Virus record (IMG/VR): IMGVR_UViG_3300009001_000006 | Location: 49,833-113,832 of that record | Direction: 5' to 3' (one strand) | Origin: a virus | DNA: 64,000 nt | Shown: positions 22,101 to 64,000 of the stretch, one piece after another | Numbering within the stretch: position 1 is the first letter of the stretch | Layout of the letters: every line of letters begins with the position of its first letter | The notes under the pieces: generated by a model | The model's input: only the letters and a program-made list of their open reading frames with translations | Told to the model about the DNA's origin: nothing | Database searches by the model: none | Program-made: the position numbers and the translations under genes

Positions 22101-25100
22101 TATCCGCAAGATCATTGGCGCTTTGTAATTGTATGTCTCGAACCTTAATAACATTATCTTTTAATCTGTCTAATTGACCAGCAAGCTGATTAGATATGCC
22201 ACCAAGAACCCTGTTGGCCTCTACTTGTTTTTTAGCATATTCTTCAAAAGTACTTCTAGCTTTTTCTGCTGCTGCATCTAATTCTTCAAGACCTTTGATG
22301 TTATTGGCTAAATCTTCATAACTCATACCTTGTCTATTACCGGTAGAATCGCTAATATAGTTTATAATACTATCTTCAAGATCTTTCTTAATATTTTTGT
22401 CAATATCCACGCCAGTAAACATTGTTTGTAATCTGTCTCTAATATTACTTTCGGCACCAGCGTCAATAGGTCCGCTATCAGCAGTATCTCTAAGAATTAA
22501 TGGTAATTCTTTTCTCATTACTTGAAGACCTTTAACGAGATCTCCCATTTGTCTGGTTTCTTTAGTATCTCCTAAACTTGCATTAATATTATCTACAACA
22601 CCAGCTAGCTCTTGAGAACTATAAGCAGTTATATTAGATAATGTTCTAACAGCATTTTCTTCTGGATCTGCAGAAGCAACATTACCACCACTATATTCAT
22701 CAGCAATCCTAGATAATCTACTAGAACTAGCAGCAATCTCAGATGTAACCCTATTCATTGTGGCACCAAGCCTATTCATTACATCTGTAAGATTTAGAGT
22801 GAATTTTTGTAATTCTCTATTAACCCTTATCATTTGCCTATTAAGGGCTATGCTACGGTTTTGTGCTCCTGATTCTTCTGCAATAGCTCTAGCGACCTTT
22901 TTTCTCATTTCAGGATCAGAGCTTTCGTATTCTTTCTGAGCCGTACTAAGATCAATGCCCTGTCTTTCTCTTCTTTGTAGATATAATCTTTTATTAACTT
23001 CTTCACTAGCCTCAACAACAATCTTTTCGGCTTTTATTCTATCATCGCCGCTTAAAGTGTCAAGATATTCTTGTACGGTCTGGTTTTCTCCCATTTCATA
23101 ACCAGCGCCACTAAGCTTAGCTCTAGCCTGATTTTGTAATAATACATTAAGATCATTAATCCCACCAGAAGCATCCCTAGTACTAGCATACTGAGCTCTT
23201 CTTTGTTCTGCTGTTAAATTAGCTCTTTCAACAGTATCAACTTTACTCAAAAATTTTCTAGAAGATTCTGGATCTCTTGTAATACGTTGGGTTTCTAAAT
23301 CAACTAATTTTCTTAATTGTTCCAGTGAGGCTATTTGGGCAGCTAATTGTTGCTCTTGGGCTGTGTTATCAAAGAAACCCGAAATACCACTCAACAAAGT
23401 ATCACCCAAAACATACGTCAGCATAGTCCCAAAACCACTACCAAAAAATTTACCTATGGTACGAAATACAGGGGAAACTATCTTAAATAGCCCTTTAGTA
23501 AGTGTTGGCCCGATTGTTCTAAAGCCAAGCCTAATAGCGCCTACAATTAATTTACCTATTATACCACCAGCAAAATGGCCCTGTCTAGCAATACCTCCAC
23601 CAGCATAACCAATACGAGAGATACTACCCCCGCCAGAGTAACCTTTAGCACTTATTGAACCGCTAGAAATTTTACCTCCAGTAGCAGCCCTTAAAGCATC
23701 CATCGAAGAACTTTTGATTACATATGAATTAGCTGGTAAATTAGTCTTAAAATTATCAACCTTACCACTACCCTTACCTGGAACAATACCCATAGGTGCG
23801 CCATCAAGCATATCTGGATTAGCACCATAACCATTTTTATCTGCGTTATTTAATCTTTGCAATTGCATGTCAGAAAACTGTGAGGCTACTTCTGGAGATA
23901 GTACCCCTTCTCCTGCGGCCAAATGTACAGGAACCAATGGCCCATCAGATCCGCTAGAGTAACCTACGCGACCACCAATAGCCATACCCCTTCTGCCACC
24001 ACGACGACGACCACGCCCCATTGGCATAGGAACCATACTTGCTGCTTGAGTCATTCTAGCAGCAGCCATAAAGCCTATTACGGTAGATAATGTACTAAGA
24101 AAACCTTCTAAACCACTGCTTAAAGCATTCCAAATTCTATTACTTTCTATTTCCTGAGCAGATTTACTCAAAGCTTGATTCAAAGCCTCATAATCATCAT
24201 TTAATTGCTTAACTAGTTCTTGTCTTTCTGCTATTGTTTGAGCCATATCTAAGCGGCTAAGTGTTTTATCTAAATTACTAGAGGCTTCAGTTACACCCCT
24301 CATAGCGTTTTCTACTTCTTTAGCTGTAGATTCTTTAATAAATCCACTAACGGCGCCACCAGCTAAACCAATAGCACCACCAACAGCAGCTCCTCTTCTA
24401 CCAAACGCTTGTTGACCTAATACAGCACCACTCAAACCAAAGCTACCAGCAGATTTTAACGCTCCAGTAACACCAGCCACAGCTTCGCTATGATCTGATA
24501 CGGTTCCGGTAAGCTTGTCGAAGGAATCGATTAGTTGTGGTAATTTACTAGCTAATAATGTTGAACCTGCACCTAGTATTCCTGTCAGCCCTCCCATCTT
24601 ATCACCAATCATAGTGATTTTATCGGCCACATCAGGGAAAGAACTAGATAGTCGAGCCATACCAGGAAGATTAGCTGTACTAAATTTAGTACCAATATCG
24701 TCAAGTATTTTACCAAAACCAGATTCTATACTTTCCTGTGCTCCTCTAAGATCCATTTTATCAAATGCGCCAAACTTACCCTCGCTTAAGGATTTTTGTG
24801 CTCTAAAGTCTATATCTTTTGTTTTCATTCCTTCGGTTAAGAAGCCCAATTCTTTAGCCATTTTTTCTTGAGCTTCAGCTGCCATATCAATAGCATCTAT
24901 TTGACTATCAAGTGTATCGGCCCATTCTGCTGATTTAGCTTTTATTTCCTCAAGAGATAAACCTTTCTTCATCATATCAATTAAATCATCCAGACTTTCA
25001 CCAAAAACATCAGGATCAATTTGATCTACACCGCCATACATTCTTTCTACAAGATCTTGTACTTGGGCTCTGACTACACCTTCTACATCAGCATCACCAA

Positions 25101-28100
25101 TAGATTCCATATTTTTAGTAATAATATCCTGAATATCAATTTGATATCCTGTGTTTTCATCCGCTCTTTGGGCGGCAGTATTCATAATTCTGGCACGAAT
25201 CATCTTCTCATATTTTTCAACTGTCATGCCTAATTTTTCAGCCATTCTAGCAACATAAGCGGCTTTATCATCTTCAACACTGCCACCACCAGCAAAACGC
25301 TGAACAAAACCAACAGCACCACCCTTATTAAAGCCTTGAATTCTGTCGGCTTTATTTAATTTATTGAGTTTTTCAGAACCAAGCTTTTTAGCCGCTTCTT
25401 TATTAATTACAAACTCGCCAGGAGTTAATAATGCTGGTACAGTATCTTGTGGTGAGCCACCATTAGCAAATCTTTGTATTTGTTTACGATATCTATTAAC
25501 TTGACCTAGAAAATCATTAGGACTTTTCCCCTTACCAAATACTGTTCTAGTAGTATCAGTAGGAATATCTGATGGTATACCGAATAATGCAGCAGCATTC
25601 CCTATACCTCCAGCAAAATCGATAGGATCATTTGTTTCATCTTTATCATATGGTGCTCCTAGTGTAGCAATAGCAGCTTCAAGATATGCCCCAATAGCAT
25701 TGTATAATCCAGCTTTTTCCATCTGATTTTTATCTAGGGCGGCAGCTGATGCACCCACTCTACTAGCCATATTATTACCAACTACAGCTACAGTTTGCTC
25801 AAAACCATCAGTCATCATTTTTTCATATTCATCAGATAATTTTTTATCTAATGTTTTGCCAATAAGTTGGACCGTATCACCATCTTCGGTTTTGGCTGTT
25901 ACGTTTCTAGGACTACCATATAAACCAACTAAACCATATTGTTTAGCTCCAACAAGTTCTTGTTCTTCTTGAGCAACAGCTTGTCTTTGCTGAATTCTTT
26001 TTTGTAGTTGTGATACAGTAAATAGGTTCTTTTGTACGTTCGGGTTTTCTAATAGTGCAGCAGCTTGTTTTTCGGTTAGTCTTTCTATATCAGATTTATT
26101 AATTTTACCAGTTTTAGCAACCTTAATACCTCCAACATCACCGCCATCATCAAATCTTTGTACCAACCCACCACTAGCGAACTGTTCTAAAAATTCTACA
26201 TTACTAAATTGATCATAAAGATTTTGAGGGATAGATGTTGGGGCATTGATGGTGCCCTGCAATTGTTTGGTGGATCTTTTGTCCTGGCTGCCAGATCTTA
26301 AAGCATCGTCTAGTCTTTGTTGTCTTTGTTGTGTAATTTTTTCAGCAGGAATTATTAATGCGGTGATTTGTCGAGCGCCAGACATAATGCTCTGTGCTTG
26401 AGGACTAAAATCTCCGCTCTTAGTTTCACCAGCACTGCTTAATACCATAAATTCTTTAAATTTATCTAAATCATCAGCAGATAATACAAAATTTTTACCG
26501 AATCTTTGAGTAGCAAAAGTGGTTTTACCAGAACCTGCTGGCCCACTAATAACATCATAATCTTTGCCAGAACTTAAAATAGCATTTAATACGTCTTTAC
26601 TACCAGCACCAATCATATCGCTATCAAAGATACCAACGCCACCAAATTGTTCACCCTGTTTAACGCCTCCACCTCCAGCAAATTTTTGCACCATGCCGCC
26701 AGAAGCTAACTTACTTCTTTCTCTATCATAAACAAGTTTTTTATTACCCATACTTTCAAGAGTTTTTAATTGTGTCGCCTTAACTTTTTCTGACTGCACC
26801 TTTCCTGTTGCAACATTATCTTTATTAGATGTTCTAAGAGCAACACCTTCAGCAACCATCTGGTTTACAATACTATTAGGAACACTATGAACAGGTCTAC
26901 CGCCAACAGATTGTCCCTGCGTTAAAGCCTTACCTAAACTATGGTCAATAGACATTTTGCGAGAATCAGTAAAAGCCCCTTGAGCTATTTCTGTAGCTCT
27001 TTGACCTAGAGCCCTTTCCCACGCTAAACCCTTTTTGATTTCATAAGCATCATAACCTTCACCACGACTAGTCATTGGTCCAACTGGACTAGATTCTGGA
27101 ATATAGGATACATGCCACGAGTCGCCGTCATATGCATCATGCGCCTGTATTTTTTCGATTCGTCCCCCACGAGCATAACCCTTAATTCTACCACCACGAT
27201 TCAACTGCTCAAGATTTTCTACACCTATTTTTTCAACAGCTTTCTTGCGAATGACATATTCACCTGGTGTTAGCATTGCTTCTACAGTATCTCTATTGCC
27301 AGTACCAGGAACCTTGCCACCACTAGCAAAACGCGGAACTGGACCGCCTTTATTAAGTCCTAGACCTGAATCTGAATCACCGCCATCAATATTAAGATTT
27401 GATATTGTACCATTTAATTCTTGCATTGTGGCCATGAGGTCGGCCATAGTTTTCATTAAACCACTAAGAGCATCAGTATTACTAGACATAATAGTAATCT
27501 GACTAGTCAAAGCATCTGTATTAGCGGAAATAGCAGCTGTATTAGCTAATATAACATCGCTATAATCATCTTTCTCTGATCCGCCAGCACCACCGCCACC
27601 AGTACCTCCACCAGTACCACGACCAGTACCTCCACCACCTCCTCCGCCACCAGGCATGCCTCCAGTAGCACCACCTCCGCCACTGCTAGTTTTTCCTAAG
27701 CCCCCCAGAAAACCGCTACCAAATTCACTAAGAATCGAGGCTCCTTTAATAGCAGCAAGAGCTGTTAACATGGGTAGTAAAGGTTTAAGTGCGCCAGCAA
27801 GACTAATAAAAGCATTAGCTGTTGTTAAACTTACGCTAGCTATAGTTCTAAAAGTTGTACTATTGCCAATATCTCTTACCAACGCCACAAATGATTGTCT
27901 TGTTTTCTCAAATTGCACAGCAAGTGAGGCTTGGGCTTGTATTGCGGCTTTGCTAAGACTGCTCTGACCACCCTGAGCCACAGCCAAAGCTTGTTGTGCT
28001 GTGGTAAATTGTTGAATAAGAGGAATAACCTTACCTATCTGGCGGAAACCACCAAGCTCTTCAACAATCTGACCAAAGCGAACATCTCTAGGGTCTAGAC

Positions 28101-29208
28101 CCTGTAAACCTTCGCTTAGTCTGCGAACAGCTTCATAAGGACCAACGAATTTTCCTTCTAAATCTGTTAAAGTGATACCATATTCTTTAAGGGCTTCAAT
28201 AGTTGAACCTCTTTGAATTCTTGTGAATATGGTTCTTAAACCAGTAGCGATTGTTTCAGCACCTTCACGAGTAGTGGCTCTAACGCTAGTAAATAATGCT
28301 ACGAATTCATTTAAAGCATCTGTACCCTGACTAACACCTTGACTAGCACTAGCAAACACACCACCAGTACGCTGAATAGCTTTGATAATGTCGCCAGCTT
28401 CTACAGCAAAAGCGGCTGCAACAGCATTAATGCTACCAAGAGAAGCTTCCAATTCAGAGCTAGATATACTGAACTGCTTCATTAAAGCAATGCTGCCTTC
28501 AACAGTATCGTTAAGATTATCAAAAGAAGGAGCTAGTGCAGATTTAGCTAGAGCTTCAAGTGCTGTTTTAGCTTCTTGAGCACTTAAACCAGCTTGAGCA
28601 AGTGTTACAGAAATTTGTAATAGATCTGTGGAGGCAACACCAAGATTAGTAGATAGTCTTGTAATTTCATTAGTAATACCCTGTAATCCAGCAACGCTAC
28701 TTCCGGTAACTTGACTTAACCTAATTAATTGTCTATCAAACTGAACAAATTCTTTATAGGCACTATTAACAGCATTGGTTAAACTATAAACAACGCCGGT
28801 AACAGCACTAAACGCAGCAAATCTTCTAATAGCAAGACCAGATTGCTTGCCAAATTCTTGAATCTGTGATGTGGCAGTATCTATAGATTTACCGGCGCTC
28901 GAAGTCTGTTTTTGTATTTTGGTTAAAGACTGTATAGAACCAGAACCTAAGCCACTTAAACCTGCACCTAATTGAGCAATGCTTTGATTTAATTGGGTAA
29001 CATTTTTATTGGCTAGAGCAGCATTTCTTGATAAAGACTGTAATTGTTTATTAATATTAGCAACATTTTTAGCTGCTGCTCCCTTTAGATCCAAATCGAC
29101 CTTAACTTTAATACCAGAAAGTTGCTTTCTCATTTGAGAAGCAATAGCTCTAGTATTAGTAGGACCTCTAAGATTAATCTGTGCGGTAAGATTAAATGCT
29201 GCTGCCAT
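16138..29208 (-). CDS. tail tape measure protein, 4356 aa, multidomain
   Basis: N-terminal TP901-type core (RLSQVTG...LSTNLGVAS...LAQAGLSA...NAVAAAFAVEAGDI...TREGAETIATGLRTIFTR); repeated xxGG/DTVPAMLTPGEFV motifs; position after tail tube and chaperones. Confidence 0.93.
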   Translation of the reverse strand: MAAAFNLTAQINLRGPTNTRAIASQMRKQLSGIKVKVDLDLKGAAAKNVANINKQLQSLSRNAALANKNVTQLNQSIAQLGAGLSGLGSGSIQSLTKIQKQTSSAGKSIDTATSQIQEFGKQSGLAIRRFAAFSAVTGVVYSLTNAVNSAYKEFVQFDRQLIRLSQVTGSSVAGLQGITNEITRLSTNLGVASTDLLQISVTLAQAGLSAQEAKTALEALAKSALAPSFDNLNDTVEGSIALMKQFSISSSELEASLGSINAVAAAFAVEAGDIIKAIQRTGGVFASASQGVSQGTDALNEFVALFTSVRATTREGAETIATGLRTIFTRIQRGSTIEALKEYGITLTDLEGKFVGPYEAVRRLSEGLQGLDPRDVRFGQIVEELGGFRQIGKVIPLIQQFTTAQQALAVAQGGQSSLSKAAIQAQASLAVQFEKTRQSFVALVRDIGNSTTFRTIASVSLTTANAFISLAGALKPLLPMLTALAAIKGASILSEFGSGFLGGLGKTSSGGGGATGGMPGGGGGGGGTGRGTGGGTGGGGAGGSEKDDYSDVILANTAAISANTDALTSQITIMSSNTDALSGLMKTMADLMATMQELNGTISNLNIDGGDSDSGLGLNKGGPVPRFASGGKVPGTGNRDTVEAMLTPGEYVIRKKAVEKIGVENLEQLNRGGRIKGYARGGRIEKIQAHDAYDGDSWHVSYIPESSPVGPMTSRGEGYDAYEIKKGLAWERALGQRATEIAQGAFTDSRKMSIDHSLGKALTQGQSVGGRPVHSVPNSIVNQMVAEGVALRTSNKDNVATGKVQSEKVKATQLKTLESMGNKKLVYDRERSKLASGGMVQKFAGGGGVKQGEQFGGVGIFDSDMIGAGSKDVLNAILSSGKDYDVISGPAGSGKTTFATQRFGKNFVLSADDLDKFKEFMVLSSAGETKSGDFSPQAQSIMSGARQITALIIPAEKITQQRQQRLDDALRSGSQDKRSTKQLQGTINAPTSIPQNLYDQFSNVEFLEQFASGGLVQRFDDGGDVGGIKVAKTGKINKSDIERLTEKQAAALLENPNVQKNLFTVSQLQKRIQQRQAVAQEEQELVGAKQYGLVGLYGSPRNVTAKTEDGDTVQLIGKTLDKKLSDEYEKMMTDGFEQTVAVVGNNMASRVGASAAALDKNQMEKAGLYNAIGAYLEAAIATLGAPYDKDETNDPIDFAGGIGNAAALFGIPSDIPTDTTRTVFGKGKSPNDFLGQVNRYRKQIQRFANGGSPQDTVPALLTPGEFVINKEAAKKLGSEKLNKLNKADRIQGFNKGGAVGFVQRFAGGGSVEDDKAAYVARMAEKLGMTVEKYEKMIRARIMNTAAQRADENTGYQIDIQDIITKNMESIGDADVEGVVRAQVQDLVERMYGGVDQIDPDVFGESLDDLIDMMKKGLSLEEIKAKSAEWADTLDSQIDAIDMAAEAQEKMAKELGFLTEGMKTKDIDFRAQKSLSEGKFGAFDKMDLRGAQESIESGFGKILDDIGTKFSTANLPGMARLSSSFPDVADKITMIGDKMGGLTGILGAGSTLLASKLPQLIDSFDKLTGTVSDHSEAVAGVTGALKSAGSFGLSGAVLGQQAFGRRGAAVGGAIGLAGGAVSGFIKESTAKEVENAMRGVTEASSNLDKTLSRLDMAQTIAERQELVKQLNDDYEALNQALSKSAQEIESNRIWNALSSGLEGFLSTLSTVIGFMAAARMTQAASMVPMPMGRGRRRGGRRGMAIGGRVGYSSGSDGPLVPVHLAAGEGVLSPEVASQFSDMQLQRLNNADKNGYGANPDMLDGAPMGIVPGKGSGKVDNFKTNLPANSYVIKSSSMDALRAATGGKISSGSISAKGYSGGGSISRIGYAGGGIARQGHFAGGIIGKLIVGAIRLGFRTIGPTLTKGLFKIVSPVFRTIGKFFGSGFGTMLTYVLGDTLLSGISGFFDNTAQEQQLAAQIASLEQLRKLVDLETQRITRDPESSRKFLSKVDTVERANLTAEQRRAQYASTRDASGGINDLNVLLQNQARAKLSGAGYEMGENQTVQEYLDTLSGDDRIKAEKIVVEASEEVNKRLYLQRRERQGIDLSTAQKEYESSDPEMRKKVARAIAEESGAQNRSIALNRQMIRVNRELQKFTLNLTDVMNRLGATMNRVTSEIAASSSRLSRIADEYSGGNVASADPEENAVRTLSNITAYSSQELAGVVDNINASLGDTKETRQMGDLVKGLQVMRKELPLILRDTADSGPIDAGAESNIRDRLQTMFTGVDIDKNIKKDLEDSIINYISDSTGNRQGMSYEDLANNIKGLEELDAAAEKARSTFEEYAKKQVEANRVLGGISNQLAGQLDRLKDNVIKVRDIQLQSANDLADKFNRTISLADLNAPFMGSVSGLTGGTTDAAKIGSMIAEAIAQKRALEADPNTQTSALGSGQIAKLTSKINSYQRALDILATSTDRASNALKKIDEQQRISAGRRSGVMDFLANVNNPEALMQMRQEQVSYSNVMAGTGTVNDIAQGISSLRMVESTQTPEEFARTQEAFFNNAMTILENAGGNPATIQQFRDTFAADFAPQDQNPAIQPFVDAYQEAIKQQTLAVEQQSKLIGTGAELTANALRQGADDFTSRMKTATDNIVAELNAVADRLGLGRPADSQGLATGGIVYAAAGQMINFQPRGTDTVPAMLTPGEFVVNRAATAKNLPLLNSINSGNYYNGGQVEYRAMGGQIGTGNTTAYRNFGNLKRYNKDSVDDYEANKDTVPFDYMDFIGNKDGSVSDTEVTKLNKIISDHKKQYFSPSNIIKYQRAKVLIPDWKEKEKEGQPWSSTSFDSLKDAREFAIEMEAAHGIPLFGKDSVGNASTSHPAVTGKNYGGDPKLPMEPNVRSGFNDIFERSIASRNAVDLEAYFYGLASKALPTLGGIIGGGLGVVAGTAVGVPTAGVGSAVALPLWTIGGAMAGNLIGHGVNSYAYSWLPSGWKDRIVKKVQENPGSYSAGQWTGFAAEMLLSDAGANAVIKGLYKTATPRILAKAVANTKTGVSAATMKVGEAVEKGRKLIGQKAAKLSRRTLKGKPTPSGAPDIQVPLSTKAADDLMPPPVPAAPATAVDDVKPLPGSSQIDTGVTTLDDVARMADDASPLPGTTQIDTGATTLDDVARLADDVTPPPVPPAPIPRAPRGMTSVGQGIGDELYDDSFASPIDVGGAGASADPLPAPRSLPPPTPASREAIEQHSEHSRRVFERTNAEIMDATGGENVGEDTSKYRFGQAVQARNKGLIDPLGVVNYYARRISIPEFELGGNSQDGGVAKGELLTQSARQTYEAEYLEVMDRIRDLYSQTSSPQQDKLLALTHRRDSLKQLLESDYRAQFNLGVPTKEPKFNLEPPTKPKSVEPNDLEKAMLKDSVIDDNVRLQELLVQQQQGTTVTSNAQLLAGFQQRFQALQTAKDEGTESDSTLLNKFNNTKLDYTRTFGPVKGVSDEPIKAGLLSIAATKQQVDDESEALKADMMMKAANAEWMSKSSQGKATEKQKKQTAADINKMMSKYEAQSGASTPAQLKGYLQKEADRRSELKAKHKEWDKYYKDKDNYDDKYLEFEFLQKRWKFREELGNDPEQRIGGNDTLGLRTLQYVLFNHPANASFGGTRINPFKQMDDDMLYGKPGLNLEEVMNPYTTTVNNNIQKLLKNYGQSLGIPGANPIPQTESDMDNWLKGINPDAIQLLDSDVADPGWMLDTLKNMYNVGVTDELGDTIASKFGLWSVTGAANSFNRDFGKQYEQAFLNKTRKRLQDISKQKGKEAESLPQDKVGSWEDIAGALEKYTAQMNRGIYGRANPGFAPLNFPRFGPGVGTEEQRIKKYRNAINGQVPKFIKDNFDYEFGGITSADGFDTVARRLGINMAGDALRETVLTDRNSIKRIRAGKTYAVNRALSGAGTGGAKQAAGIANLFASAGSTEISAQDRDRFTDLSGETTKKTTILGLLASALNFGQRLGITNRQARLDYVKDFDFASTLQDPIYGKYEKDLDSSILKLKPIYTLWDSLKNYFVKGDQTTARIIDENAAGVISDTQTKAGSFTIGGKQISANGFLDKYQAALAPGKDPYNMILEGGGILTESGKGGKGQQEFRGLIGAPTPFDNKEFIVSQKEIQMQEPVKRARGGSIPNYLSGGGSTLVNYQPKGTDTVPAMLTPGEFVVNRAATQKHLPLLKSINNGSMPTHMGGATYARSGGVIQARNYFDGGLSSMGRMVGGALGLDMSGAESVFNTFIRNFNSETSAFGGLINNLARVFPALGGPVNNFGNHVDKLVNALNGLKNIEIKGPNIPDTINVNSDTIRVELIAPQDSNYKLSEEDKRQIAEALQTKLQALTTLGRIA
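19753..19903 (-). repeat. ~78-bp tandem duplication inside the TMP (PLPGxxQIDTGxTTLDDVARxADD x2) in a Pro-rich linker
   Basis: Two copies are visible in both the protein and the DNA (ctagcaacatcatcaagagttgtt). Confidence 0.85.
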
Positions 29209-58569: not shown

Positions 58570-58615
58570 AATAAGCCTGTAGTTTGTGGTTGTGTTCTGC
58601 TTTGTCTATTATAGG

Positions 58616-58623
58616 TATACACT
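58616..58623 (-). promoter_or_regulatory. putative late promoter motif AGTGTATA heading the Cys-rich array
   Basis: 47 nt upstream of the start at 58569. Confidence 0.6.
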
Positions 58624-58645
58624 ATTTTTATACAAAAGGGCGTTG

Positions 58646-60103
58646 ATGATGACTAAGCAAATATTAACTATGGACCAGGTGGAAAAATATGAAAAAATCT
58701 ATTTTGGGTCAAAAGAAAAGATTAGTGGGATTTACGGAATTGTTTTTTATAGAAATGATGTTAATGGTGTGAAAATTTATATTGGAAATAGTATTGATAT
58801 TATAGCTAGATGTAAAGAACATGTTAGGAATTTGACTGGTACTTCTGGACGGAAAATTAATAAAACTTCGAAAAAGTTAATACAGTGTTATAAGAATAAA
58901 AATTATAAGATGGTTTTTGTGGTATTGGAACGATGTAATGAAAATGTGGTCATGAGCAAAGAACGTGAATATCAGCATAAGTGGGTGAAGCGGAATTTAT
59001 TAAATAATTGGGTGGCATCTAATATAGATGAAATTAAGCCATGGTTAGATAAATGTATTAAAAGTAAAGCCTATACAAAACATTTTAAATATAGTGAAAA
59101 GAATTTTTATAATGGTACTCCTTGTAAGGAAAGTCTTAGTGTAAGTTCAGGCGGATATGCTAGAATTCAGGTTCGTATTAATAGCAAAGACAAACATATA
59201 TTTAAGCATAGAGCAGCTTATTACGAAAAGCACAATGAATATCCAGAATTAGTTCGTCATTTATGTAATAATAGATGTTGTTATAATCCTGATCATTTAA
59301 CATCTGGAAATTATAGTGAAAATAGTTTAGATAAAAGAGGGGATTTTCCAGAAAGATTTGAAAAAGATTGGGTGAGGCTGGAAGGTGACGCAGATAAGTT
59401 AACAACATTATATGGATGGAAAAGAAATTGTACACGAAAAGGGGTTCGCATATCAGCGACAGTTTATCGATGGGAAAAGAAATTAGGATTAAGAGATAAT
59501 TATCCTGATATTTACTATAACAAAAGAGCTATGCGAACAAAGTTGTGGAGAAGAAAAGATATACAGGAATTTATACAGAATTGTGGGGATAAGTATGGAA
59601 ACAGTAATGTAAAAATAGCTAAGGCATTAAATACGGAATATGGATTAGAACTAACACCTCGGCAATTAAGCCAAATGAAAAATAAGATGAAGGGCAAATC
59701 AAGAAATAGAAAAAGAGTAAAGAATGCGGATCTGACAGGGGCGACTAGTGTGATAAAAGAATACTATCAGTCAAAGACAGATGAAGAAATTAAAGATATA
59801 TGCAATGCCAAATTAGGTACTTCATATCAAACGGGCACAATAAGAGCAATGAGATTTGATTTAAGTTTATATAAGCCTCAAATGATTCAAGACAAGGTGG
59901 GGGATTTATACAGAAGAGATGCTGTATCTAGGTGGGGGATAGAGGCGGAAAAGTTAGTGGAATATTTTGGGGAAGAGTATTCAGATGGGGAATTAGCAAA
60001 GATATGTAATAGGGAGTATGGGGAAGATATGGGGTTTGATGAGGGGGTGATTCAAGAACTAAGGCAGCTAGTAGGATCTGGGGATACTGTGGGGCAAACT
60101 TGA
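58646..60103 (+). CDS. GIY-YIG plus HNH dual-domain homing endonuclease-like protein
   Basis: SGIYGI...KIYIGNS..I.AR...H...E...E (GIY-YIG) and HRAAY...VRHLCNNRCCYNPDHL..GNYSEN (HNH). An ATG start at ~58646 is preferred. Confidence 0.85.
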   Translation: MMTKQILTMDQVEKYEKIYFGSKEKISGIYGIVFYRNDVNGVKIYIGNSIDIIARCKEHVRNLTGTSGRKINKTSKKLIQCYKNKNYKMVFVVLERCNENVVMSKEREYQHKWVKRNLLNNWVASNIDEIKPWLDKCIKSKAYTKHFKYSEKNFYNGTPCKESLSVSSGGYARIQVRINSKDKHIFKHRAAYYEKHNEYPELVRHLCNNRCCYNPDHLTSGNYSENSLDKRGDFPERFEKDWVRLEGDADKLTTLYGWKRNCTRKGVRISATVYRWEKKLGLRDNYPDIYYNKRAMRTKLWRRKDIQEFIQNCGDKYGNSNVKIAKALNTEYGLELTPRQLSQMKNKMKGKSRNRKRVKNADLTGATSVIKEYYQSKTDEEIKDICNAKLGTSYQTGTIRAMRFDLSLYKPQMIQDKVGDLYRRDAVSRWGIEAEKLVEYFGEEYSDGELAKICNREYGEDMGFDEGVIQELRQLVGSGDTVGQT

Positions 60104-60226
60104 TAGTTTAGGTATTACATTTTATATAGATAGTGCTTACTATTTTTGGACCACCCGCCCTTTTTCAGAGCAGCGAACACATACCCAAGCAAAACAAAAA
60201 AACCCCCCTATGTAGGTAGGTATATA

Positions 60227-60428
60227 TGTAAGGTATTGATAGATATAGACTTGCGTGTATGTCTGCCGACCGGCCCCCTCTTTGGTGGGGTAATAAAAGA
60301 AAAAACTTTTGGCATGATATTTGCACTAGAAAAAAATAAAAAAATTTTTCAGAAAGTACTTGACACCTGACGATACTAGGTATATACTTGAGACATAACA
60401 AGTAACCAAGAAAGAAAAGGAAAAAGAC
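60227..60428 (+). repeat. composite intergenic cassette 1
   Basis: 11-7-11 palindrome 60227-60255; CCCC-N8-GGGG 60275-60290; sigma54 motif 60309-60325 (+); TTGACA-17-TATACT 60360-60388; purine-rich leader. Confidence 0.8.
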
Positions 60429-60620
60429 ATGAAAAAGCTCATCCCCTACTTCGAAGCAAACGGCGTTCGGTACACTATCCTCAATAAGATGCGAATCTTT
60501 CTTTCGCAGAACAATCAAGTTCTTGCTGTTCAATCAGCAGATACCTTTCCTGCTAAGGTTTCACAAGATCCACTCTTGGTCCGCTTTTGGCAGAACGAAC
60601 TGAATCGAGAATATGCTTGA
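60429..60620 (+). CDS. small early-type hypothetical protein
   Basis: AAGGA RBS after the cassette 1 promoter. Confidence 0.75.
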   Translation: MKKLIPYFEANGVRYTILNKMRIFLSQNNQVLAVQSADTFPAKVSQDPLLVRFWQNELNREYA

Positions 60621-60666
60621 CCCCATATTGGAGTAGATCTATCCCCCAAAAGAATTGCTAGCCAAA

Positions 60667-60901
60667 GGTAAGTGCTTGGTAAATAAAGACTTACAAGCGA
60701 TTCGACCGGCCGGCCCCCTCTGTGGTGGGGGTGTACAAGTGTTCCACTAGCAAACGCTGTGCCAAACGAGAGCAAAATGCCAGAAAGTTTTGTCAAATTT
60801 TCTTGACATAAAAATTCCAAAATTATTGTTGACGACTAAAGATTGCTTTGGTATAATGTCGATATAAGGAATAAGGAAAAGAAAACTAAGGAGAAATAAA
60901 A
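60667..60901 (+). repeat. composite intergenic cassette 2
   Basis: Palindrome 60667-60695; CCGGCCGG; CCCC-N8-GGGG; sigma54 motif 60749-60765 (-); TGTCAA-N6-TTGACA; TTGACG-17-TATAAT 60829-60857; AAGGAG. Confidence 0.9.
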
Positions 60902-61048
60902 ATGGAAATGCAAATCCTCTACATTTCAGATTGCTGCGGTTCATATCTTGACGATTGCCATATCGAATATGGTATCTGCAACGATTGCGGTGAGCATTGT
61001 GAAGTGCTGACCGAAGAATATCCTGCTACCCCCGTTTGTGGGGGTTGA
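60902..61048 (+). CDS. 48-aa Zn-finger-like protein (SDCC...ICxxCGEHC), not in the ORF track
   Basis: MEMQILYISDCCGSYLDDCHIEYGICNDCGEHCEVLTEEYPATPVCGG*; AAGGAG RBS; paralogue of 62715-62921. Confidence 0.85.
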   Translation: MEMQILYISDCCGSYLDDCHIEYGICNDCGEHCEVLTEEYPATPVCGG

Positions 61049-61072
61049 CAACACAAAAAAATTTGCTAGACT
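61030..61072 (+). promoter_or_regulatory. mini-cassette: CCCC-N8-GGGG fused to a sigma70 promoter
   Basis: CCCCGTTTGTGGGGG then TTGACA-16-TAGACT. Confidence 0.7.
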
Positions 61073-61096
61073 TTGGATAACTAAGGAGAAAACAAA

Positions 61097-61276
61097 ATGA
61101 CGATTTACCCAAGTATGAACGACTACCGCAAGTATTTCAACACCATGACAACCGATCTTCTTTCGGTATGGGTTGAGGTTGCAGAACATAAACTGCCGAA
61201 CTATACTAGGATCGAGGAGGTCGAAACCGTAAAGGCCGCTCTAATCGTAGCCCGTCAAGTATTGTCCACCCGATAG
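61097..61276 (+). CDS. 59-aa protein (LSVWVEVAEHKLPNY family), not in the ORF track
   Basis: AAGGAG RBS; paralogue of 62059-62256. Confidence 0.85.
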   Translation: MTIYPSMNDYRKYFNTMTTDLLSVWVEVAEHKLPNYTRIEEVETVKAALIVARQVLSTR

Positions 61277-61288
61277 GAAACCGAAAGA

Positions 61289-61579
61289 ATGAATACTGAA
61301 AAACTCATGCAACAATACCCGATTCTCACTGACGCTTGGAATCAGTGTACCCTAATCTGGAAAGGTGTTGAGCAGAACGGAACGGTTCACAAGTTCAATC
61401 GAAAAGAATTGAGAAAAATTGTAAAGGCTAACCGTCGGTCGGTCGATAAGAGACTGGTGGGCGGGAATGACCACATGATTGAAAAGGTAGGAAAGCCTGG
61501 CTCCCCCGAAAGAGTGGTTGCGTTGGCTGCCCAATATGCTAGACTGAGTGAAAGCGAATCGTCACCCTTTGGAGAATGA
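61289..61579 (+). CDS. hypothetical protein
   Basis: AGGA RBS; co-oriented with its neighbours. Confidence 0.75.
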   Translation: MNTEKLMQQYPILTDAWNQCTLIWKGVEQNGTVHKFNRKELRKIVKANRRSVDKRLVGGNDHMIEKVGKPGSPERVVALAAQYARLSESESSPFGE

Positions 61580-61583
61580 TAGA

Positions 61584-61820
61584 ATGACAACCTACGAAAA
61601 AATGACAACGCGAGAACTTGACGCTTGGATCCGGGAAGGCGGGAAAGACTTGAGCGATAATGCTCAAACGTACACCCCAGCAAAGTATAGGCTGGTGGCC
61701 CATATGGTACGCTCTGCCGTTCGTGAGAGGCTGCGACGACTTCGCCATGCCGACTGGCTGGAGAAGGAATACGCTTGGGAAACTGAACGGGCGATCAGGG
61801 GTGGTACAGGGTGGAGTTGA
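61584..61820 (+). CDS. hypothetical protein (MTTYEKMTTRELDAW...)
   Basis: ATG at 61584 after GGAG; ends just before cassette 3. Confidence 0.7.
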   Translation: MTTYEKMTTRELDAWIREGGKDLSDNAQTYTPAKYRLVAHMVRSAVRERLRRLRHADWLEKEYAWETERAIRGGTGWS

Positions 61821-61841
61821 TCCCTCATTAGGGTGGGCGTT

Positions 61842-62058
61842 CGTAAGTTGTTGCTACGTAAGGACTTACGGCCTGCCCGGCCGGCCGAACCCCACTTGCG
61901 AGGGGTATTAGCAAATGCCGTGCCAAAAGCACACAAAATACCAGAAAGTTTTGTCAAATTTTCTTGACATAAAAATGCAGAAAAATCTCTTGACAATTCA
62001 AGTTTCGTATGGTAGAATGTCGATATAAGAAGTAAGAGAGAAAGAAAGAGAGAAAAAA
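61842..62058 (+). repeat. composite intergenic cassette 3
   Basis: Palindrome CGTAAGTTGTT-GCTACGT-AAGGACTTACG 61842-61870; CCCGGCCGGCCG; CCCC-N8-GGGG; sigma54 motif 61910-61926 (-); block near-identical to cassette 2; TTGACA-17-TAGAAT 61990-62018. Confidence 0.9.
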
Positions 62059-62256
62059 ATGACAACGCTACAAGCACAATACAACAGTCTTCAAGAGCAA
62101 TTCCACAAGATGAGCAATGAAATGCTCTCAGTGTGGATTGAAGTAGCAGAACACAAACTGCCAAACTATCGCCGAACCGAAGAGATGCTGTCGGTTCTCA
62201 ATGGCATCCACGCTGCCAAGAGTGTTCAACGCTATCGAGAAAATAATTGGGAGTGA
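62059..62256 (+). CDS. 65-aa protein (LSVWIEVAEHKLPNY family)
   Basis: First gene after the cassette 3 promoter. Confidence 0.85.
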   Translation: MTTLQAQYNSLQEQFHKMSNEMLSVWIEVAEHKLPNYRRTEEMLSVLNGIHAAKSVQRYRENNWE

Positions 62257-62257
62257 T

Positions 62258-62300
62258 CCCCCAGCGGCGGGGTTGACAAACAGAAAATCTTTGGTATAAT
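62258..62300 (+). promoter_or_regulatory. mini-cassette: C-tract/G-tract box fused to a sigma70 promoter
   Basis: CCCCCAGCGGCGGGG then TTGACA-16-TATAAT (62273-62300) with extended TG. Confidence 0.75.
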
Positions 62301-62319
62301 GTCTGAAAAGAAAGAGAGA

Positions 62320-62520
62320 ATGAGAATGAGAAAGCCTAGTTTCAAGACCGTTGAGAAGAATCTGGTACAGTATGCTAGAAAGATGGATTGCGAAATCGTC
62401 AAACACCACGACGGTTCCTATTCACTGTACGATCGTAAAATGGATTATGTATCCATTACCAAAGCAACTCGACAGCGTGTTGCAAACGAAGTTTACTATT
62501 GGATGAGTGCTAGTAAGTAA
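62320..62520 (+). CDS. hypothetical protein
   Basis: Start downstream of the -10 box (ATG at 62320 or 62326). Confidence 0.7.
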   Translation: MRMRKPSFKTVEKNLVQYARKMDCEIVKHHDGSYSLYDRKMDYVSITKATRQRVANEVYYWMSASK

Positions 62521-62541
62521 GTAAGAGAGAGAGTGAAAGAG

Positions 62542-62718
62542 ATGAGTAAGTATCAAATGTTCAGTACCTATCGTCGCTATGCTGGCGGTTATTTTGAATG
62601 CTACAAGAAAGATGAGTATCTTGGCAACGTGTACGCTAGTACAGAGAAGGCTGCAAGGTATAAAGCCTTCAAGTTGTTTGGTGTTTGGTGCAATGTTTAT
62701 TGGCAAGATGGAGAATGA
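62542..62718 (+). CDS. hypothetical protein
   Basis: MSKYQMFSTY...YLGNVYASTEKAARYKAFKLFG. Confidence 0.7.
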   Translation: MSKYQMFSTYRRYAGGYFECYKKDEYLGNVYASTEKAARYKAFKLFGVWCNVYWQDGE

Positions 62719-62921
62719 AAATGGGAATGATGATTCAAAGCGACTGTTGCAACGAGCCAATGAGTGGCTCACAAATTGACCACGAAATTTGCCCAAAGTG
62801 TGGCGAACACTGCACCGTGGTGTTTGATCGTAGCGAAGAACGAATTGTTAGTTTTGCCCAACAGCGTCGTGCTGAACGGCTTAGGAAATGGAGCAAGAAT
62901 GAAAATGAAAACAGGCTATAA
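62715..62921 (+). CDS. Zn-finger-like protein (SDCC...ICPKCGEHC)
   Basis: ATGA overlap with the previous gene; paralogue of 60902-61048. Confidence 0.8.
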   Translation: MKMGMMIQSDCCNEPMSGSQIDHEICPKCGEHCTVVFDRSEERIVSFAQQRRAERLRKWSKNENENRL

Positions 62922-63129
62922 TAATTTTGAAGAAGCAATGATTTCTATGCTAACAAAAAAACAAAAAGAAAAACTATTAGATATAGCAAGGAATACTAAT
63001 ATAGGTACGGAATACTCAGAACAGTTTGGGGGAATAGCATTAGCCTGTTTGGCTGGAAAGATTGAAAAAAGTTTGACAGGTAAGAATGGAACAAACTGGT
63101 TTGAAGTTCTTTCGGAGAATAGAAAATGA
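62899..63129 (+). CDS. hypothetical protein
   Basis: GGAG RBS before MKMKTGYNNF. Confidence 0.6.
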   Translation: MKMKTGYNNFEEAMISMLTKKQKEKLLDIARNTNIGTEYSEQFGGIALACLAGKIEKSLTGKNGTNWFEVLSENRK

Positions 63130-63215
63130 AAAGTAAACTTAACAATGACGGCCTGGCTGTTATGCTCTTTCTTATGGTGTGTGTTGTGGTAATATTTATA
63201 GAAAGATTGGTGTAA
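63126..63215 (+). CDS. 29-aa single-TM peptide
   Basis: MKSKLNNDGLAVMLFLMVCVVVIFIERLV*; ATGA overlap; GGAG upstream. Confidence 0.55.
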   Translation: MKSKLNNDGLAVMLFLMVCVVVIFIERLV

Positions 63216-63222
63216 GGAATAG

Positions 63223-63398
63223 CCCCCTCTTTGGTGGGGCCCGGCCGGCCGAGTCGGCCATAAGTCCTTACGCCCCAACGACTTACGATCGCAGAGCAAA
63301 TGCTGTGCCAAAAAAGAAAATAATTTTTTCTAGATTTTTCTCTTGACATTCAAGTTTGCTGTGGTAGAATTCCGATATAGAAAGTAAGGAGAACAAAA
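63223..63398 (+). repeat. composite intergenic cassette 4 (left part inverted relative to cassette 3)
   Basis: CCCC-N8-GGGG, CCCGGCCGGCCG, palindrome 63259-63287 in reverse orientation, sigma54 motif 63295-63311 (-), TTGACA-16-TAGAAT 63343-63370, AAGGAG. Confidence 0.9.
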
Positions 63399-63704
63399 AT
63401 GAAAGCACACAACCCACGAATCATTTGCCGCGACGGCTTCTCAATCAGTGTTCAGGCCCGTGAGACTGCATACTGCACACCACGAAGCGACCACGGCCCA
63501 TACTCGCATGTAGAGTGTGGATACCCTAGCGAGGTTCCAAAAAGTTGGAGATTCCGGGAATTCTCGGAAGCCGCCCAATTTGGCAAGGGTTAGCCAAAGG
63601 ATGAAGAATACACCGACACGGTATATCCGTATGTTCCTGTTCATCTGGTTCGGCATGAGTTGGATCTGCACGGTGGAATTGTTGAAGGAAGGTTGCCAGA
63701 ATAG
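63399..63704 (+). pseudogene. conserved small phage gene (DGFSISVQA...TVYPYVP...HGG) interrupted by an in-frame TAG at 63591-63593
   Basis: The frame continues past the TAG as PKDEEYTDTVYPYVPVHLVRHELDLHGGIVEGRLPE*. Confidence 0.7.
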
Positions 63705-63715
63705 GAGAGATTGAA

Positions 63716-63865
63716 ATGGCTTGTATACAGACTATTTATGAAATTCGGATTCGTGATCCGCTCAGTGGTGACGAGCGAGTGATTAGTAATGGAACTTGTT
63801 TCCCTGTCACGACAGAGTGGCAATGGTTGATTGATGCCGGTTTTGCGGTTTGGTACTATGTTTAG
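63716..63865 (+). CDS. 49-aa hypothetical protein
   Basis: AGGAG RBS; MACIQTIYEIRIRDPLSGDERV... Confidence 0.65.
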   Translation: MACIQTIYEIRIRDPLSGDERVISNGTCFPVTTEWQWLIDAGFAVWYYV

Positions 63866-63877
63866 GGGGATTGTAAT

Positions 63878-64000
63878 ATGACAACGCAAGAATTGAAAAA
63901 CTATGTTCGCTCAGGCCGATACGCTTGGCCCGGAGGATACCCGAAGTATTTTGTAATGAACGACGGCGAGGCCATGAGTTTCGACGCTGTACAAGAAAAC
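63878..64000 (+). CDS. hypothetical phage protein (YAWPGGYP motif), 3' truncated
   Basis: MTTQELKNYVRSGRYAWPGGYPKYFVMNDG...; GGGGG RBS. Confidence 0.7.
   Translation, partial: MTTQELKNYVRSGRYAWPGGYPKYFVMNDGEAMSFDAVQEN

Follow-up and report, generated by a model that had tools for sequence, protein, structure and literature searches.

Organisation of the early island

The window, that is, the whole stretch of DNA analysed here, comprises 64,000 nt (positions 49,833-113,832) of a 113,832-bp phage contig, IMG/VR record IMGVR_UViG_3300009001_000006, and all coordinates below are those of the window. The phage, a siphophage, encodes a tape measure protein of 4356 aa. Four palindromes had been reported in the earlier note at 60227, 60667, 61842 and 63259, and all four strings were recovered there. 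When the 27-nt consensus GTAAGTNNTTGNNNNNTAANGACTTAC was searched with up to 3 mismatches, four window sites (7 strand matches) were obtained against 0.03 expected from 100 shuffles. The bare GTAAG...CTTAC pattern is weak by itself, with 2 matches against 0.32 expected, a number reached by 6 of 100 shuffles. The four sites are confirmed as non-random copies of a conserved 27-base element. All of them are confined to the final 4 kb of the contig, an early island, and no further copy was found across the whole 113,832 bp. Each copy is located between the last gene of one cassette and the conserved promoter cassette of the next. A Pfam search of nine small ORFs of the island returned no family.

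The first copy (GTAAGGTATTG-ATAGA-TATAGACTTGC, 60228-60254, plus strand) has 3 mismatches to the consensus and is the sole window copy with the full IHF-type core TAA-N4-TTGATA. On the same strand there follow a GC clamp, CCGACCGGCC, continuous with the C5..G4 stem-loop GCCCCCTCTTTGGTGGGG (60266-60290), and then, within 60306-60388, a forward sigma-54-like box, TTGGCATGATATTTGCA, and a sigma-70-type promoter, TTGACA-17-TATACT, for the gene at 60429. The second copy (60668-60694, plus strand) matches the consensus exactly and precedes the clamp CCGGCCGGCC with the stem-loop CCCCCTCTGTGGTGGGGG (60704-60731, plus strand). The conserved regulatory cassette beyond it (60747-60908, plus strand) is 72-80% identical to cassettes of dozens of other viral contigs; it contains an antisense sigma-54-like box (60750-60767), an orphan TTGACA (60804), the promoter TTGACG-17-TATAAT (60829-60857) and a ribosome-binding site. 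The third copy (61843-61869, plus strand), likewise an exact match, is followed by the clamp GCCCGGCCGGCCGA with the stem-loop CCCCACTTGCGAGGGG (61875-61905, plus strand) and by another conserved regulatory cassette (61908-62062, plus strand), composed of an antisense sigma-54-like box (61911-61928), an orphan TTGACA (61965) and TTGACA-17-TAGAAT (61990-62018).

The fourth module is inverted relative to the other three. Its stem-loop GCCCCCTCTTTGGTGGGG and clamp (63222-63252, plus strand) come first, and its 27-mer (63260-63286) matches the consensus on the minus strand with 1 mismatch. An antisense sigma-54-like box (63296-63313, 9 nt past the 27-mer) and TTGACA-16-TAGAAT (63343-63370) complete this border (63296-63370, plus strand). 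With respect to the downstream promoter, the fourth copy has the orientation used in the large relatives described below. Two stem-loops stand alone, namely a C5..G5 stem-loop at 61029-61044 fused to TTGACA-16-TAGACT (61029-61072, plus strand) and CCCCCAGCGGCGGGG fused to the perfect promoter TTGACA-16-TATAAT (62258-62300, plus strand). Both are units without a 27-mer of the type of the PeSL (promoter-early stem-loop) cassettes of T4-type phages (Arbiol, Comeau and Krisch 2010, PMC2839356; Comeau et al. 2014, PMC4122927). The promoters at 60360, 60829, 61045, 61990, 62273 and 63343 match the consensus at 10 to 12 of 12 positions, and AT-rich stretches are located upstream of the window promoters.

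Composition of the module

The repeat unit is a 27-mer of the form GTAAGTNNTTG-N5-TAANGACTTAC. The palindromes had been described with an 11-7-11 geometry, of which the inverted arms and the varying centre hold, but the variable centre measures 5 nt, not 7. All four centres differ (ATAGA, GTAAA, CTACG and, for the fourth copy on the minus strand, GGGCG), while T6, G11, T17, A19 and the flanking C and G are conserved. Conservation extends to positions left free in the search pattern, T6 being present in 123 of 127 copies and A19 in 108 of 127, together with the flanking C and G. The arms are conserved, as had been proposed, but are not fully symmetric: phage copies mostly lack complementarity at pairs 7:21 and 8:20. 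Similarly, the reverse orientation of the fourth copy is correct but does not concern the palindrome alone, as the entire module of about 69 nt is inverted (78% complementary).

Each module follows the order 27-mer, CCGGCCGGCC-type GC clamp, and stem-loop formed by a C-run and a G-run (C5..G5). Clamps of this type gave 10 matches against 0.22 expected, 9 of which fall in the palindrome region. Stem-loops of the form C4-5..G4-5 are present in all four modules, in addition to the two fused to promoters at 61029 and 62258.

Distribution and helical phasing in the phage clade

The 27-mer is present across hundreds of viral contigs; two scans gave no fewer than 119 and 120 viral loci, respectively. 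Five large relatives share the terminase TerL at 68-80% identity, and each carries 19-27 motif matches within one island of 15-20 kb, the reversed-pattern control yielding 0. The best cultured TerL match, from Bacillus siphophages, is only 22-29% identical. The carriers are an uncultured clade of very large siphophages without a cultured relative. A nuclease-like ORF neighbouring the motif is not conserved across the clade.

Sites in the relatives are spaced about 1 kb apart, many of them as fixed doublets. Motif starts are exactly 53 nt apart, or 5 helical turns, in 293 of 555 neighbouring pairs, and a second class lies at 42 nt. In the doublets the hexamer half-sites are 21, 32 and 21 bp apart, placing them on the same face of the helix, and each of the four arms has its own consensus. 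The spacing to the downstream promoter, called by the pattern TTGACN-16/18-TAnnnT alone, is also regular: distances from the motif peak at 19, 29-30, 40-41, 50-52, 60 and 70-72 nt. For the distance to the -35 box the best period is 10.5 nt (power 21.8), a value that none of 5000 smoothed null samples reached. This periodicity persists once the linkers are clustered at 70% identity, clusters that may still share descent. The centres of the sites in the relatives lie about 65-145 bp ahead of the start site. It should be noted that the phasing was measured in these doublet-bearing relatives and not in the window, where the distances to the -35 box (105, 109/134, 95/120 and 56 nt) do not clearly fall on a lattice of 19 + 10.5k and, being four, are too few to test it. 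The presence of both module orientations in the window counts against a strictly polar upstream element.

Copies in bacterial chromosomes

The motif occurs sporadically in bacteria of at least six phyla, often just past tRNA genes. Copies lie 0-12 nt beyond the 3' ends of tRNA or tmRNA genes and never ahead of 5' ends, and some chromosomes carry the motif without a phage nearby. The core is embedded in differing dispersed repeat families in Treponema, termite-gut Planctomycetaceae and Latescibacterota; one Latescibacterota genome holds about 16 copies, with a poly-G run ahead of each. In the family of one carrier a match was found in only 4 of 121 genomes, near the control level. In 17 bacterial loci no Rfam family overlaps the motif. 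A canonical terminator is located downstream of the motif in three bacterial loci, indicating that the motif is not the terminator there.

Cassette borders and exchange

Between relatives, 22 of 107 homology-block ends fall no more than 10 nt from the motif, compared with an expectation of 7.3% (p = 9e-6), so that breakpoints coincide with the element. Relatives L173 and L090 share homology in a mosaic pattern, and promoter cassettes remain 72-80% identical between contigs although the genes differ. The modules are the only sequence common to otherwise unrelated ORFan cassettes, and for this reason they may provide homology patches for the gain, loss and swap of cassettes.

Proposed role of the module

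From comparison of the sequences, the 27-bp quasi-palindrome together with its clamp and stem-loop is read, with a probability of about 0.5, as an early-cassette boundary module that presents a double-stranded DNA docking site for a dimeric protein. A dimeric DNA-binding protein had been mentioned in the earlier note as the alternative to a recombinase, and it is this alternative that fits best: sequence and not structure is conserved, the half-sites are in register, and in the relatives the -35 box is phased at 10.5 nt. A dimeric and probably DNA-bending protein, of host or phage origin, would dock on the 27-mer and keep to one face of the helix ahead of every strong sigma-70-type early promoter. 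From this upstream position it could have an architectural or regulatory function and act as an insulator, while the modules would act as homology patches for cassette exchange in the manner of PeSLs. What the sequences show is the conservation, the position, the rigid geometry, the phasing in the relatives and the breakpoints at the motif; binding by a protein, an influence on transcription and homology-based recombination are inferred. No candidate binding protein for the 27-mer was found, and genes for a sigma-54 activator or for HU/IHF are absent from the contig, three complete relatives and one partial relative.

The module might instead act as RNA, as the 3'-terminal part of each early-cassette transcript, where its hairpins would terminate or attenuate read-through, shield the mRNA 3' end as REPs do, or form a processing site resembling the early RNase III sites of T7. 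The position directly past the last gene or tRNA of each cassette suits such a role, as do the C-run/G-run stem-loops, which resemble the PeSL terminators of T4-type phages. Doublets outfold their shuffles, with a mean z of -1.85 on the sense strand vs -1.45 on the other, and in bacterial copies, which trail tRNA and tmRNA 3' ends, positions 8:20 covary as Watson-Crick pairs (44 of 97 vs 24 expected); together these two signals may point to a role for a hairpin. In an intrinsic terminator, however, a U-tract follows the GC-rich hairpin directly, whereas none is present past the module, and a terminator scan called 0 of the 4 modules. Folds in the window are not clearly above shuffles (z from -0.2 to -2.1), RNAalifold gave no consensus fold for 68 doublets, and phage copies show no compensatory change and are depleted in 8:20 Watson-Crick pairing (9 of 91 vs 30 expected). 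In the doublet hairpin the inner arms alone pair consistently. Rfam returned a single match, to gyrA RNA, at chance level (16 bits vs a threshold of 45, E = 4.2). A hairpin would also leave the invariant stem sequence, the rigid 53-nt spacing and the -35 phasing unexplained, and a role in RNA is considered rather unlikely.

Tyrosine recombinases use inverted arms of 11-13 bp around a spacer of 6-8 bp, the identity of which sets which sites recombine, and the sites had been proposed to be dif- or att-like cores for a host Xer-type or phage-borne enzyme. The geometry fits loosely, as 10-7-10, 11-5-11 or, with the flanking C and G, 11-7-11; the arms of about 11 bp, the short centre and the two arm flavours per site recall dif/XerCD, loxP/Cre and att. 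The bacterial copies adjoin the 3' ends of tRNA and tmRNA genes, typical places for integration, and cassette breakpoints coincide with the sites. Nevertheless, this proposal is very improbable. Among the phage genes of the contig, three complete relatives and one partial relative, PF00589 is absent, a control search having found it in 14 of 14 genomes, although a host Xer enzyme could still act on the sites. The centres differ among all copies. A replicon carries one dif site, and attL/attR or lox sites form one pair; here there are tens of copies per genome, about 20 in each relative and often as tandem doublets, from which an active recombinase would delete the island. We know of no dif, lox or att system with some 20 sites at about 1-kb intervals, many in 53-nt doublets. 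The surroundings of three bacterial copies beside tRNA or tmRNA genes contain no integrase, and two bacterial genomes with a single copy have no attL/attR pair. Promoter phasing is also unexpected for recombination sites. The same phasing is not predicted if the 27-mer is the core of a selfish REP/BIME- or MITE-like unit, spread by some enzyme within or between genomes and found at cassette borders where insertions are tolerated. Both orientations in the window, the shared core inside different bacterial repeat families, the sporadic bacterial distribution and the BIME-like mosaic of two unit types with a fixed linker agree with such a unit. However, the Y1 (RAYT) transposase family PF01797 is absent from the contig, three complete relatives and one partial relative, and from the Latescibacterota and Treponema genomes that carry repeats built on the core; target-site duplications are not visible at the four window copies. 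A selfish origin is unlikely. A further reading is that the phage makes a repressor to silence the early island at a later stage of infection, with the sites as its operators. This would draw on the same doublet geometry and promoter phasing as the docking site, and dispersed palindromic operators over many promoters are known in phages. Repressors usually cover the -35 and -10 boxes, though, and these sites are located far upstream; no conserved regulator emerged as a candidate, and chromosomal copies without a nearby phage would be unexplained, which leaves the repressor distinctly doubtful.

Large phages take over the host with many small, fast-changing early genes. To our knowledge, the organisation, expression and exchange of such genes are known in detail for T4-type phages alone, through PeSLs. 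Here an unrelated, uncultured clade exhibits a PeSL-like modular logic with an extra, invariant 27-bp element. Its rigid doublets in promoter register point to a specific protein partner, offering a handle on promoter architecture and cassette exchange, and the occurrence of the same core beside tRNA genes in scattered bacteria hints at cassette traffic between phage and cell. A bolder idea, which we regard as a long shot, is that the 27-mer may be a portable docking or recombination signal of an undescribed cassette system common to the giant-siphophage clade and scattered bacteria, in which one protein would both set up the early promoters and move promoter-gene or tRNA cassettes between genomes. 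If true, phages would have an equivalent of the attC-type system of integrons that works with no tyrosine recombinase.

Comparison with known systems

The modules resemble PeSLs in being short intergenic composites that combine a strong sigma-70-like promoter with AT-rich sequence before the -35 box and a stem-loop of G/C runs. They are likewise clustered in a plastic region of small ORFan genes, where the units are conserved and the genes between them vary, and they mark where relatives differ by insertion, deletion or replacement. PeSL carriers, however, are T4-type myoviruses, whereas the phage described here is a siphophage, and PeSLs have no counterpart of the invariant 27-mer, the rigid 53-nt doublet or the helical phasing. 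The present stem-loops also lack a U-tract; a terminator role is putative.

REP/BIME elements of enterobacteria consist of two types of extragenic palindrome that alternate in orientation and are joined by fixed linkers, and include the IHF-binding RIP/BIME-1; they are located at transcription-unit ends and between operon genes and are bound by IHF and gyrase. Two alternating palindromic unit types, fixed linkers and transcription-unit ends recur here, with binding of an architectural protein being putative. REPs are species-specific and mobilised by RAYT, in contrast to the core described here, which is common to the phage clade and to scattered bacteria of several phyla; no RAYT was found in the phages or in the two copy-rich bacterial genomes searched, and only about one copy in five matches the IHF core.

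Upstream activator or bending sites include those for Fis at rrnB P1 and for IHF upstream of lambda pL and Mu Pe. Like them, the 27-mer is dimer-sized, located at roughly -70 to -140, ahead of an AT-rich UP-like stretch and in promoter register. It differs in that the Fis consensus is unmatched and the IHF consensus partly matched, and its effect on transcription is putative. The invariant TAA-N4-TTG covers 6 of the 9 positions of the IHF core WATCAANNNNTTR, and the remaining positions match as well in 19 of 91 phage copies, 13 of 97 bacterial copies and 1 of the 4 window copies, which thus have the full core.

Organization of the Motif and Its Module

The four palindromes quoted in an earlier note were all found, at 60227, 60667, 61842 and 63259 of the window, and they are real; they are part of a widespread, previously undescribed boundary element between early-gene cassettes. 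The bare pattern GTAAG-N15-21-CTTAC is weakly unusual in the window (2 matches versus 0.32 expected), and the 27-nt consensus GTAAGTNNTTG-N5-TAANGACTTAC is present at four sites with 0.03 expected when up to 3 mismatches are allowed. No further copies of this 27-mer occur elsewhere in the whole 113,832-bp contig, of which the window is the final 64 kb. Each copy belongs to a module of approximately 70 nt, in which the 27-mer is combined with a CCGGCCGGCC-type clamp (10 matches versus 0.22 expected, 9 of them within the motif region) and a stem-loop of a C-run and a G-run. Beyond the module lies a sigma-54 -24/-12-like box, followed by one or two sigma-70-type promoters that match 10 to 12 of the 12 consensus positions. 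The earlier note had described the fourth palindrome as reversed; its reverse orientation holds, and it is the entire module that is inverted (inverted repeat I1), not the palindrome alone. The near-perfect sigma-54-type boxes (TTGGCAY-N5-TTGC) are located at 60306-60327 on the plus strand and, with the consensus on the minus strand, at 60750-60767, 61911-61928 and 63296-63313, so that every window cassette carries one and three of the four are antisense to the genes. An extra perfect TTGACA is observed at 60804-60809 and at 61965-61970, 25 nt upstream of the real -35 and with no matching -10, and this hexamer is kept between cassettes 2 and 3. Plain units of the PeSL (promoter-early stem-loop) type, lacking the 27-mer, are found at 61029 and 62258. 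Rfam returned nothing relevant for the motif region or for 17 bacterial loci, and nothing relevant on the motif was found in the literature. To our knowledge, the consensus sequences of CIRCE, BirA, TyrR, LacI-type, Fis and dif sites do not fit it.

The modules are located in the last 4 kb of the window, an island of small genes on the plus strand whose G+C content (60001-64000) is 0.43-0.44 versus 0.28-0.42 elsewhere in the window. None of the nine small island ORFs searched has a Pfam family. Two duplicated small-gene families, both without a Pfam family, are present, one encoding Cys-rich, zinc-ribbon-like peptides (60902-61048 and 62712-62921) and the other peptides with SVW(I/V)EVAEHKLPNY (61097-61276, 62059-62256 and 61585-61820). 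At the head of the island, a 505-aa ORF at 58586-60103 (+) with weak GIY-YIG and HNH/His-Me matches is probably a free-standing homing endonuclease; as the cognate nuclease of the motif it was ruled out, being absent from five relatives of the clade. The window also encodes a large terminase, a baseplate-hub/tail-lysozyme-like tail gene and, as a single ORF at 16138-29208 (-), a 4356-aa tape measure protein with a PhageMin_Tail domain near its N-terminus, implying an extremely long tail. With this ORF assigned to the tape measure protein, a reading of the sites as N4-type hairpin promoters, used by a virion RNA polymerase, was rejected. The window contains no tRNA genes. A nucleotide search against cultured phages gave no match, and the terminase is at most 29% identical to that of any cultured phage.

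Relatives and the Doublet Form

A motif scan of the viral collection gave at least 119 loci, and a second, in which each arm was fixed at its outer 7 bp alone, gave at least 120. Among the viral matches listed, the positions left free in the search pattern are still conserved; in the set from the looser scan, 139 of the 209 unique copies listed have TT/AA at positions 9-10 and 18-19. Five large relatives, contigs of 105-231 kb that include three complete ones, have terminases 68-80% identical to that of the window, and each has 19-27 motif matches, approximately 1 kb apart, in one 15-20 kb island that also contains tRNA clusters. A reversed-pattern control in the five relatives gave zero matches. 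The element usually occurs there as a doublet, and among the viral loci listed, neighboring motif starts are exactly 53 nt apart in 293 of 555 pairs, and a second, less frequent spacing is 42 nt. In gene sense, a 26-nt GC-rich spacer separates copy A from copy B, and a short AT-rich linker then leads from copy B to a TTGACA promoter. Copy 4 of the window is oriented as copy B, copies 1-3 are flipped, and in the window's lineage (together with contigs L090 and L173) a C/G stem-loop takes the place of the second 27-mer. Most motifs in the relatives lack a sigma-54-like box; where one is present, it tends to follow at 9 or 13-14 nt. The same words also form another small palindrome, CCTTAC-N6-GTAAGG, which is seen repeatedly between doublet and -35 box, for example in contig L289 at 1100-1140 and near 2540, 3790 and 4720, and in many other cassettes of relatives; this recurrence suggests that GTAAG/CTTAC is the basic recognition word.

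Possible Mechanisms

Docking at the DNA level is the mechanism with the best support: a putative dimeric or bending protein would bind the double-stranded 27-mer upstream of a strong early promoter. The most telling DNA-level result, which points to this reading, is the phasing between the motif and the next sigma-70-type promoter. The distances peak at 19, 29-30, 40-41, 50-52, 60 and 70-72 nt, and once the linkers had been grouped into 171 clusters at 70% identity, the strongest periodicity was at 10.5 nt; its Rayleigh power of 21.8 was reached by none of 5000 smoothed null samples at any bandwidth. Such phasing would follow if a protein sat upstream of RNA polymerase; neither a recombination site nor an RNA hairpin accounts for it. 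Moreover, the hexamer half-sites are spaced 21, 32 and 21 bp apart and therefore lie on the same helix face. The docking reading agrees with the alternative offered in the earlier note, a binding site for a dimeric protein; that the motif is an operator of a phage repressor is possible. Against a DNA-level site, the four distances within the window itself (105, 109/134, 95/120 and 56 nt) are not clearly on the lattice, doublet folding is somewhat stronger than in shuffled sequence (mean z -1.85), and positions 8 and 20, which face each other in the arms, covary in bacterial copies. An RNA-level role of the module is accordingly possible. However, RNAalifold found no consensus fold among 68 doublets, pair tallies in the doublets did not consistently favor any one of the four pairings that the arms could form, Watson-Crick pairs at 8:20 are depleted in phage copies (9/91 versus 30 expected), and each doublet arm has its own consensus.

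The earlier note proposed dif/att-like sites for a tyrosine recombinase, on the 11-7-11 arrangement of the palindromes. This is unlikely. No tyrosine recombinase gene was found in the contig, three complete relatives or one partial relative, no two of the four copies have the same central bases, and with tens of sites in one genome, many of them in tandem, site-specific recombination would be destructive. Genes for a Y1 transposase, a sigma-54 activator and HU/IHF were likewise not found in these contigs, and control searches with the recombinase, transposase, activator and HU/IHF profiles gave the expected results. Enhancers for a sigma-54 activator were rejected, with no PF00158 gene in the phages and the box beside a minority of motifs only, as was a phage-encoded, TF1-like HU/IHF, for which no gene was found in the phages. 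The 27-mer itself resembles an IHF site only in part. A selfish-repeat origin of the 27-mer is possible, and some bacterial copies do lie within dispersed repeat families; RAYT/REPIN elements were rejected, the Y1 transposase not being found in the phages or in two copy-rich bacterial genomes.

Probable Cassette Exchange

Between relatives, 22 of 107 homology-block ends lie within 10 nt of a motif, versus 7.3% expected (p = 9e-6). The promoter cassettes at 60747-60908 and 61908-62062 are 72-80% identical to those of dozens of contigs, with which the genes between them are not shared, and homology between the window and its close relative L173 is mosaic. PeSLs of T4-type phages, which combine a strong sigma-70-like promoter, an AT-rich stretch and a G/C-run terminator stem-loop, mediate modular shuffling of ORFans (PMC2839356; PMC4122927). 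The conserved promoter cassettes, differing genes, mosaic homology and homology-block ends of the window's clade match this behavior. Exchange at motif sites would be an evolutionary consequence of the docking element.

Bacterial and Probably Mis-Binned Copies

With each prokaryotic species represented by a single genome, a scan gave 113 motif loci versus roughly 4 expected, in Planctomycetota, Treponema and other spirochaetes, Latescibacterota, Acidobacteriota, Omnitrophota, Gemmatimonadota and a few Proteobacteria. Ten or more copies lie 0-12 nt downstream of a tRNA or tmRNA 3' end and none lies ahead of a 5' end; the phage relatives show the same order, with a doublet 6 nt after a tRNA. Others are located between parA and parB or near groEL, rpoD or gidA. 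Integrated elements at the tRNA-adjacent copies were rejected, with no integrase near the three tRNA- or tmRNA-adjacent copies examined. The surrounding genes are ordinary chromosomal ones, and no protein family consistently adjoining the copies was found. In one carrier's family, a match occurs in only 4 of 121 genomes, near the control level. The bacterial copies are therefore sporadic, and such a distribution suggests that they arrived horizontally and are not a conserved signal of the hosts.

A Latescibacterota chromosome (G007; loci L178, L188, L206 and L222) carries approximately 16 copies of a unit of about 40 nt, consisting of a run of at least 12 G and then a 27-mer with a TTTTTT center, and at least one unit immediately precedes a gene whose secreted product has a T9SS sorting domain. 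In two contigs from Omnitrophota bins, group I introns (L186:571-798 and L217:266-501) lie just upstream of a tRNA 3'-end sequence, which is followed by the 27-mer and a canonical terminator; an intron-containing tRNA gene is inferred. Phage-type cassettes, in which the 27-mer occurs with a GC-rich spacer, a sigma-54-like box or a bacterial sigma-70 promoter, are also present in archaeal and assorted bacterial bins (L198 and L270, Promethearchaeota; L250, Bathyarchaeia; L184; L245), and these contigs are probably mis-binned fragments of the window's phage clade.
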